Shown: piece by piece, positions 37,101-38,722 of the stretch
How the letters are laid out: each line of letters begins with the position of its first letter
Position numbering within the stretch: position 1 is the stretch's first letter
The notes under the pieces: model-generated
Told to the model about the DNA's origin: nothing
Database searches by the model: none
What the model saw: the letters and a program-made list of their open reading frames with translations, nothing else
Made by a program: the position numbers and the translations under genes
DNA from: Acidobacteriota bacterium
GTDB taxonomy: Bacteria; Acidobacteriota; Thermoanaerobaculia; UBA5066
Direction of reading: 5' to 3'
Length of the DNA stretch: 64,000 nt
Assembly: GCA_008363385.1 (NCBI GenBank)
Contig: RHKY01000034.1
Coordinates: 14,903 to 78,902, forward strand

Positions 37101-38722
37101 TGAACGCCTTCGGGTCGCAGCAGAGGACGACGTCGACGTGCCTCAGGTCGCAGTTGACCCGGATCCGCTCGGGCGCCACGACGAGGAAGTACTCGGTCGG
37201 CGCCCCCTTCTTCTCCGAGCCGTACTTCGGGTTGGCGCTGACGTGGATCACCTCGCGCGGACGGCCCCAGGCGTCCCGGGCGCCGTCGCGCTCGGCGACG
37301 AACTCGCCCAGCTCGCCGATGACCTCGCCGAGGTTCTTGCCCGTCGTGATCATCCCCCAGCCGCCGATCGAGTGGAGCCTCACCGCGATGGCCCCGTGCG
37401 GCAGGAGCGACGGGCGCTCGGCCGCCTTCACCTCGTACGGGTGGTCGACGCCGACGACGAAGAGCGTCGTCCCGTCGGCGGCGGTCCTCCCGTCCTTGCG
37501 CGCGAGGGAGCCCGTCGCGAACCCGTAGGCGCCCAGGATCCCCTCCGGCCGGAAGTCCCGCGAGCCGAGGCCGTAGATCCCCGAGAAGAAGCGCGGGACG
37601 TCCGCGGGGGCGATCGTGCCGTCCTGCGCCGCCTTCGTGAAGGCGGTCCTCAGGTCGCGCGCGAGCGGGTTGTCGCCCGCGAGAGGCTGGTCGGTCCGCT
37701 CCAGGACGACGACGTTCCGCTTCCCGCGCGGGGCGGAGGACGTTGACGTGGACCGAGCCCACCTTCTCGCCCCGCTCGCGCAGGTGGTCGACGGCGGCCT
37801 CGACGTTCTCCGCGGCCGAGCCCATCGAGACGAAGACCGTCTCGGCGTCCTCCGTCCGGTAGCGGGAGAGGAGGCCGTAGTGACGCCCCGTCAGCGCTCC
37901 GAACTCCGCGTACGCCGCCTCCAGCATCGGGAGGATGGCCTCGGAGAACCCGGAGCGGTGGGCGACCACCCCGTTCATGTAGTGCTCCTGGTTCTGGACC
38001 GGGCCGAGGAGGATCGGGTTCGCGAGGTCGATCATCCGCGGCACGCGGCGGCGCCGCGGGCCGAAGAGGGCGCTCTGGGCCGGCGTCGGGCAGTCGATCA
38101 CGTCGTCCGGCGCGCCGAGGAACTCGCGCATCAGCCCCGCCTCGTGGCGGTAGAAGGTCCGCTCCAGGTGCGAGGTGAGGAAGCCGTCCTGGGCGTTGAT
38201 GCCGGGGGTCAGCGACAGCTCGGCGACCTTGCGGAGGATCAGCGCCTGGTCCGCGGCCTGCTGAGAGTCCTTGCCGAAGAGGACGATCCAGCCCGTGTCC
38301 ATCACCGCGTAGACGTCGTCGTGGCCGCAGTGGACGTTCAGGGCGTGCTTGGTCAGCGCTCGCGCCGAGACCTCGAGGACCATCGTCGAGAACTTCCCGG
38401 GCGCGTGGTAGTACTGCTCGGACCCGTAGACGATCCCCTGCCCCGAGGTGAAGTTGACCGTCCGCTTCCCGCAGACGGAGAAGGCGATCGCCCCGCCCTG
38501 CGCCGAGTGCTCCCCCTCCGTCTCGCAGGCGAGCTTGCTCCCGCCGAAGACGTTCAGCTTCCCCTCGGCGAAGGCGAGCTGGTAGGCCTCGCCCATCTCC
38601 GTCGACGGCGTGATCGGGTAGAAGACGCCCCCGTCCGTGATGCGCGCCTCCGTGTGGTACGAGACGAGCTGGTTGCCGTTCGTCGTGATCCGGATGCCGG
38701 GGTAGCGGGGCGCAGCGTCCAT
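34111..38722 (-). pseudogene. nifJ: pyruvate:ferredoxin (flavodoxin) oxidoreductase (NifJ/PorA-type), apparently disrupted by a frameshift or small deletion near 37720-37740
   Basis: Domain I (38722 to about 37730: MDAAPRYPGIRITTNGNQLVSYHTEARI...GEKVGSVHVNVLRP) lies in one frame. Domains II-VI (RNVVVLERTDQPLAGDNPL...KAAERPSLLPHGAIAV... to the stop at 34111) lie in another. The later part includes the ferredoxin cysteine motifs ENCTQCMECISSCP and CKGCGECVTEC and the TPP region GGDGGMGDIGFQN. The junction is short by about 11 codons relative to canonical PFORs. Confidence 0.7.

Follow-up and report, generated by a model that had tools for sequence, protein, structure and literature searches.

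A 29-nt deletion, probably a recent slippage event, frameshifts a long 2-oxoacid:ferredoxin oxidoreductase gene in an Acidobacteriota genome

A gene for a long 2-oxoacid:ferredoxin oxidoreductase (OFOR) is interrupted by a 29-nt deletion in the 64,000-nt stretch of Acidobacteriota DNA analysed here (the window), which is a metagenome-assembled (MAG) consensus. Comparison with an almost identical intact allele leads us to regard the lesion as probably a real and very recent slippage deletion that took place in the cell, leaving a pseudogene or a segregating null allele. The window has a G+C content of 73.7% and long spurious ORFs in every frame. With an intact ortholog as the tblastn query, residues 1-335 align at 38722-37718 and residues 339-1546 align at 37737-34114, as separate HSPs that each have a frame of their own, which bears out the frame change that the initial annotation had located at 37700-37745. 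The features concerned are as follows.

37726-38722, minus strand: 5' part of the OFOR (PFOR-like) gene in its original frame, from the ATG at 38722 to the last base before the deletion
34111-37725, minus strand: 3' part of the OFOR gene in the +1 frame, ending at the stop codon 34113-34111
37725/37726, minus strand: deletion scar, where 29 nt (CGGAGGCGGCGTACGTCGCCGCGCTCTCG) are absent relative to the near-identical contig L085
37717-37725, minus strand: retained 3' copy of an imperfect direct repeat, GGGAAGCGG (7/9 identity at a 29-nt offset)
37429-37431, minus strand: GTG, the first ATG/GTG/TTG of the 3' frame after the preceding stop
33596-34099, minus strand: tpx (thiol peroxidase, 167 aa), directly downstream and sharing the frame of the shifted OFOR 5' part

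The 5' part encodes domain I (POR_N) and the opening of domain II, up to about profile position 39, and its ATG is also the start used in the NCBI proteins MCE7957597.1 and MDL1951522.1. Its translation (frame A, codons at 38722-3k) begins MDAAPRYPG and runs from MDAAPRYPGIRITTNGNQ to GEKVGSVHVNVLRPA; it aligns with residues 5-307 of the pyruvate:ferredoxin oxidoreductase (PFOR) of D. africanus (1B0P; E=6e-36) and also matches that of M. thermoacetica (6CIN). The conserved continuation had been placed in the +1 frame as far as the stop at 34111, and translation confirms this: from 37725 the +1 frame reads GKRNVVVLERTDQPLAGDNPLARD and stays open through to that stop. This 3' part holds the rest of domain II, POR domain III, two ferredoxin motifs and the TPP-binding domain. 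CxxCxxCxxxCP (twice), CxGCGE and GDG...DTQVYSNTGGQ, which we assign as PFOR motifs, are all found in its translation.

Profile searches describe the same architecture. Pfam places POR_N at residues 34-250 of the intact protein, PFOR_II at 293-402 and POR at 463-674, with weak Fer4 matches, and a PorB-type match at residues 1216-1375 scores 74 bits, below that model's 405-bit cutoff. Within the window, domain I, which forms the pyrimidine-binding half of the TPP site, is present (PF01855, 126 bits, 38722-37718), as is domain III in the 3' ORF (PF01558, 83 bits), where Fer4 families score 23-27 bits. A complete PFOR_II domain is absent from the window: the N-terminal fragment covers profile positions 1-39 of 102, as against 1-99 of 102 in the intact allele, and the remainder lies in the other frame with 10 residues missing. 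The order POR_N, PFOR_II, POR, two [4Fe-4S] clusters and TPP domain is common to the D. africanus and M. thermoacetica enzymes, than which the OFOR here is ~300 residues longer. Against the NCBIfam PFOR equivalog TIGR02176 (NifJ/PFOR) the intact allele scores 336 bits and does not reach the curated cutoff of 911, so that 'PFOR' is a family-level label only; the name pyruvate:ferredoxin oxidoreductase in the initial annotation thus holds for the family and goes too far for the equivalog. NCBI itself names the protein only 'oxidoreductase' or '2-oxoacid:acceptor oxidoreductase family protein'. Judged by its domains, the gene belongs to the OFOR family and encodes a predicted single-polypeptide 2-oxoacid:ferredoxin oxidoreductase of 1546 aa when intact, acting on a putative 2-oxoacid substrate.

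The intact allele comes from contig QWHR01000128.1 (L085; GCA_021405005.1, a MAG of Acidobacteria bacterium ACB2), which was found by way of the downstream tpx gene. Across window positions 39127-31379 (7.7 kb) the two sequences differ by two SNPs (39120 and 37788) and one 29-nt gap, and within the OFOR gene the SNP at 37788 is the sole other difference. The ACB2 locus has the same neighbours as the window, a kinase upstream and tpx downstream, and its protein, MCE7957597.1, is intact at 1546 aa. This is the long single-chain type found in Acidobacteriota and relatives, from which the window allele differs only by the one SNP and by the deletion that puts it out of frame. Placement of the breakpoint is unique, between 37726 (C) and 37725 (G), and no other placement reproduces the window. 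The loss of 29 nt (3x10-1) amounts to ten codons minus one base and puts everything downstream into the +1 frame; the residues lost are PEAAYVAALS, with one base of the Pro codon kept. The initial annotation was right that a segment is missing and slightly overestimated it, at about 11 codons. The ortholog alignment that it proposed for sizing the gap gives 29 nt against both this contig and eight related loci.

The lesion falls inside PFOR_II, at D. africanus residues ~308-317, where the intact allele aligns with 1B0P gap-free across the deleted stretch (vlrpapeaayvaalsgkrnv / lyrpfvseaffaalpasakv). The break had been ascribed to the junction of domains I and II; it lies neither there nor at any natural split boundary of multi-subunit OFORs, since the N-terminal fragment already carries the opening of the PFOR_II profile. 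The gene in the window is spread over two frames with no compensating indel downstream, the 3615 nt to the stop being identical to the intact allele. The description of the two halves as otherwise intact is therefore borne out, with the SNP at 37788 as the one further change in the gene.

A pairwise comparison is symmetrical, and for this reason alone the opposite polarity might be considered, in which the window would be ancestral and ACB2 would have gained a 29-nt insertion. Outgroups refute this reading, which we regard as vanishingly improbable: the segment is present in all DNA and protein outgroups, and the frame is continuous only with the segment in place. A protein search gave 120 relatives. 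The names they carry are '2-oxoacid:acceptor oxidoreductase family protein' and 'pyruvate-ferredoxin/flavodoxin oxidoreductase', and they are mostly from Acidobacteriota and otherwise from Verrucomicrobiota, Planctomycetota and Nitrospira. In all 119 homologs that cover the site, the spacer between RP and (K/R)N is exactly 13 residues long, with the consensus FPEAA(I/V)VxALxGK and several invariant positions (P and A in 119/119). The DNA alignment with the eight related loci contains a single 29-nt gap, in the window only, and the gene is uninterrupted in 53 of the 58 representative genomes; the best match in the GTDB genome scan was 84% identical among the matches listed, which did not include the genome of the window itself. 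By these alignments the window carries a deletion relative to its orthologs, and the segment would not be one that is naturally absent.

The same evidence bears on whether the frame change could be functional, as a programmed +1 frameshift at CCC-G (37732-37729) or as a working two-piece enzyme. A proline codon in the CCC-G context is in principle prone to +1 shifting, CCC-G is present here, and both halves are otherwise intact. However, the shift is found neither in the ACB2 genome, which is two SNPs away and has the gene in a single frame, nor in any of the 119 homologs; the 0 frame has no stop or hungry codon and stays open for 3.6 kb; reading through 37700-37770 we saw no SD-like stimulator; and the missing residues include the invariant P and A. 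As for a split enzyme, the break is within PFOR_II and not at a natural OFOR subunit boundary, and the 3' frame offers its first start codon only at 37431. Programmed +1 frameshifting of the prfB type likewise leaves the downstream frame at +1. Unlike prfB, the site here has no conserved shift site, 0-frame stop or SD stimulator, and a conserved segment is missing. A scan of 33400-39100 for promoter and terminator consensus sequences gave nothing above chance. With no conservation, no 0-frame stop and conserved residues gone, we reject both a programmed shift and natural absence of the segment, and consider a functional frame change or split very improbable. The initial annotation had said that a segment naturally absent from orthologs, together with a ribosomal slippage signal, would count against gene disruption; the segment is present in 119 of 119 homologs and no stimulatory signal was found. 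Its other two alternatives, recent pseudogenisation and a sequencing or assembly indel, both stand.

The consequences for the product can be read from the two frames. In the 0 frame, which stays open over 3.6 kb, translation from 38722 would run on to 33596 through one 1708-aa ORF that consists of 332 genuine residues, ~1,200 out-of-frame residues and then Tpx; the 74% G+C content keeps the shifted frame open over this distance, and naive gene callers could report the chimera as a giant protein. In the 3' frame, initiation at the GTG at 37431 would give a product of 1106 aa without domains I and II. With the frame shifted and no 3'-frame start codon before that GTG, the window allele is not expected to yield a functional enzyme. 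Apart from the one SNP, every other base of the gene agrees with the intact allele, so the deletion should also be very recent.

Two local features of the deleted segment suggest how it may have been lost. The segment begins with CGGAGGCGG, which lies 29 nt upstream of GGGAAGCGG and is identical to it at seven of nine positions, a match that only 0.26% of the gene's positions equal at a 29-nt offset. With 2 nt added on either side, the deleted 29-mer has a folding energy of -21.4 kcal/mol; windows along the gene average -9.3, and only 0.26% of them are as stable. In a DNA fold of 66 nt the hairpin covers almost exactly the deleted bases, and a repeat search found a 30-nt quasi-palindrome centred on the deleted segment. 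The hairpin stands out only against the rest of the gene and not against dinucleotide shuffles (z = -1.3), and at the breakpoint itself there are zero bases of exact microhomology.

A deletion across a hairpin between short repeats is a textbook signature of polymerase slippage, and slipped-strand mispairing at direct-repeat and quasi-palindrome deletion hot spots has been described for E. coli lacI. We therefore propose that a polymerase would have skipped the stable GC-rich hairpin (GGCGGCGTACGTCGCC core) during DNA synthesis, and that the nascent CGGAGGCGG-type end could then have re-paired on the near-identical GGGAAGCGG 29 nt downstream. Such a slipped-strand deletion would remove the ten conserved residues and put everything downstream in the +1 frame, and ribosomes starting at the ATG at 38722 would make the 332 genuine residues followed by the ~1,200 out-of-frame residues, running into tpx. 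Like the lacI hot spots, the event removes one repeat copy and the intervening hairpin-forming sequence in a short deletion; unlike the classic cases, the repeats are imperfect (7/9) and no base of microhomology lies exactly at the breakpoint. Hairpin and repeat together would thus indicate a polymerase event, not a base-calling or graph error, and would do so alike for synthesis in vivo and in vitro.

This last point means that the preference for a deletion in the cell has to be weighed against the possibility that the gene is intact, as in ACB2, and that the 29 nt were lost in vitro or in assembly or polishing. In favour of such an artefact, the near-identical genome has the intact gene, its contig being the only other public contig found to cross the site; the gene in the window shows no further decay; the window sequence is a MAG; and the hairpin and repeat would equally favour skipping by a polymerase during library amplification or sequencing. 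In addition, public assemblies, apparently made from long reads, often have this long GC-rich gene in pieces: one relative has it in at least four ORFs (L094), three of the 58 representative loci are broken at odd places, and the gene behind one protein (P0124) changes frame several times, most likely through assembly noise. Against it, base-calling and long-read errors are typically of 1-2 nt, not 29 nt, and a de Bruijn assembly of short reads, if such it was, could have formed the junction only from k-mers that occur in reads. The assembly is not noisy, with zero differences from the independent Logan contig SRR25316600_4351 over 16,003 nt; the window organism is also present at 100% identity in several other public runs, in contigs from SRR26196969, SRR25316602, SRR7051043 and SRR7663064/5. 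The intact allele was also assembled normally in another project, so that the hairpin is not systematically skipped. Given how many bases are missing, the hairpin and direct repeat at the site and an independent pseudogene in a relative (described below), we favour a deletion in the cell over a sequencing or assembly error, which we judge the less likely of the two and still a serious alternative.

The deletion allele itself was sought in other public data. No public protein matched exactly the 1708-aa ORF, the 1106-aa 3' ORF or the product of an alternative start, nor the 'repaired' protein carrying the window's D312. A homology search with the out-of-frame tail returned only P0124, which belongs to a different genome, and a junction-centred search with the intact sequence gave no proteins from the same organism. 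JGI metagenome scans with both alleles, and then with the 5' flank only, found nothing, which says little because the organism is absent from that collection; a literature search on the assembly accession, run accessions and MAG name likewise found nothing. NCBI numbers Tpx (KAA0252975.1) and the upstream kinase (KAA0252976.1) consecutively on an 87,183-nt MAG contig. This implies that the record has no annotated protein between the two, as expected if the gene is treated there as frameshifted (a pseudogene), and it counts in favour of a real deletion. The same-organism contigs retrieved mostly stop short of the site, at 37783 in one from the ACD MAG (L089) and at 37234 in another (L090). We considered whether these ends might mark a polymorphic assembly bubble and rejected the idea: their distances from the breakpoint are 57 and ~490 nt, and contigs end at scattered positions throughout the gene.

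A related species provides a second, different case of a damaged gene. On Logan contig SRR17021127_20413 (L095), positions 4538-9007 hold an OFOR ortholog with the same synteny as that species' closest relative, L081; the species is ~87% identical at the nucleotide level to L081 and to the ACB2 contig, and 86-91% to L004. The ortholog has an in-frame deletion of 168 nt (56 codons) over the domain-II stretch that is also hit in the window, at residues ~325-380 of the intact protein, which in relatives is flanked by a 12/14 direct repeat (AGGyCGGGwCGATC) 168 nt apart, and a nonsense codon (CAG->TAG) also interrupts its conserved LQLRM-Q-GNAF motif. It looks like an independent pseudogene undergoing genuine decay, and its two different lesions raised our estimate that the deletion in the window is real. 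Together the two cases suggest that the enzyme may be dispensable in this clade and that the domain-II stretch may be deletion-prone. We advance more tentatively the fuller picture, in which the 29-bp deletion is a real null allele segregating in an almost clonal Acidobacterium and the domain-II hot spot was hit independently in the other species. The names of the MAGs (ACB2, ACD, PRO3) presumably denote bioreactor bins.

Two further forms of the gene were seen among relatives. In three genomes (L082 at 6001-10763, L021 and L079) it consists of two ORFs (~1125 aa and 461 aa) joined just before the TPP-binding domain, at one and the same place in all three; a natural division of the long OFOR into two subunits may lie behind this, not an error. 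On contig SZOV01000098.1 (L084; GCA_030263375.1; matching window 36439-33598) a 2056-aa ORF of the Pkinase-GAF-Sigma54_activat type runs into the last 2.3 kb of the OFOR gene, with homology to the window setting in sharply at 36439. A chimeric misassembly or mis-binning is the probable cause. We infer that the assembly is linked to the name 'Deltaproteobacteria bacterium PRO3', which is among the names listed for the shared Tpx protein.

Searching the window by tblastn with the intact ortholog found no second OFOR, and the 18 larger ORFs scanned in the window included no PDH-type gene. Upstream, the OFOR gene is flanked by two tandem Ser/Thr kinase-PD40 propeller genes, and downstream by tpx, a B3_4-domain gene and a beta-lactamase-family gene. 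The kinase genes of the window are as follows.

38905-41538 and 41535-44219, minus strand: two tandem paralogous Ser/Thr kinase + PD40 beta-propeller genes, with a 4-nt overlap
14794-18756, minus strand: third large kinase, with Reg_prop/Y_Y_Y propeller repeats

Elsewhere in the window, an uninterrupted 1435-aa ORF at 44331-48638 (minus strand) joins a type IA topoisomerase (Toprim and Topoisom_bac, aa 77-675) to a complete RecQ helicase (DEAD, Helicase_C, RecQ_Zn_bind and HRDC, aa 765-1431) through an Ala/Pro-rich linker of ~60 aa. In a search of 1.84 billion cluster representatives, dozens of proteins of 1100-1450 aa match both halves in one stretch, which makes the fusion a conserved architecture and not an assembly accident; a quick literature search found no description of it. 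The region ~22585-31100 has a weak coding signal and includes a PLD-nuclease/ResIII/DUF3427 helicase, and gene calls on identical contigs add a PIN toxin with a PSK_trans_fac antitoxin and an HTH gene. On a contig of a divergent strain (L086, SRR34420818) identity falls from 97% to 86% and homology is then lost near 31100-30550, which suggests that the region is a strain-variable island. A cluster at 9876-14034 (minus strand) encodes an MttB-family methyltransferase, a corrinoid (B12-binding) protein and a homocysteine S-methyltransferase-type protein. The cytochrome bd oxidase genes cydAB lie at 48840-51238, followed by a short-chain fatty acid transporter at 51277-52647.

The lesion is of an ordinary kind and has no bearing on any long-standing open question. 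It is a caution for metabolic reconstruction, in that a large oxidoreductase can be called in one MAG and not in another of what is essentially one organism, and pathway inferences about pyruvate or 2-oxoacid oxidation and ferredoxin reduction would flip on a 29-bp difference, be it real or artefactual. If the deletion is real, it would be a clean, datable case of a gene inactivated by slippage between direct repeats across a hairpin, and the long OFOR would be an enzyme that has been lost repeatedly in this clade.
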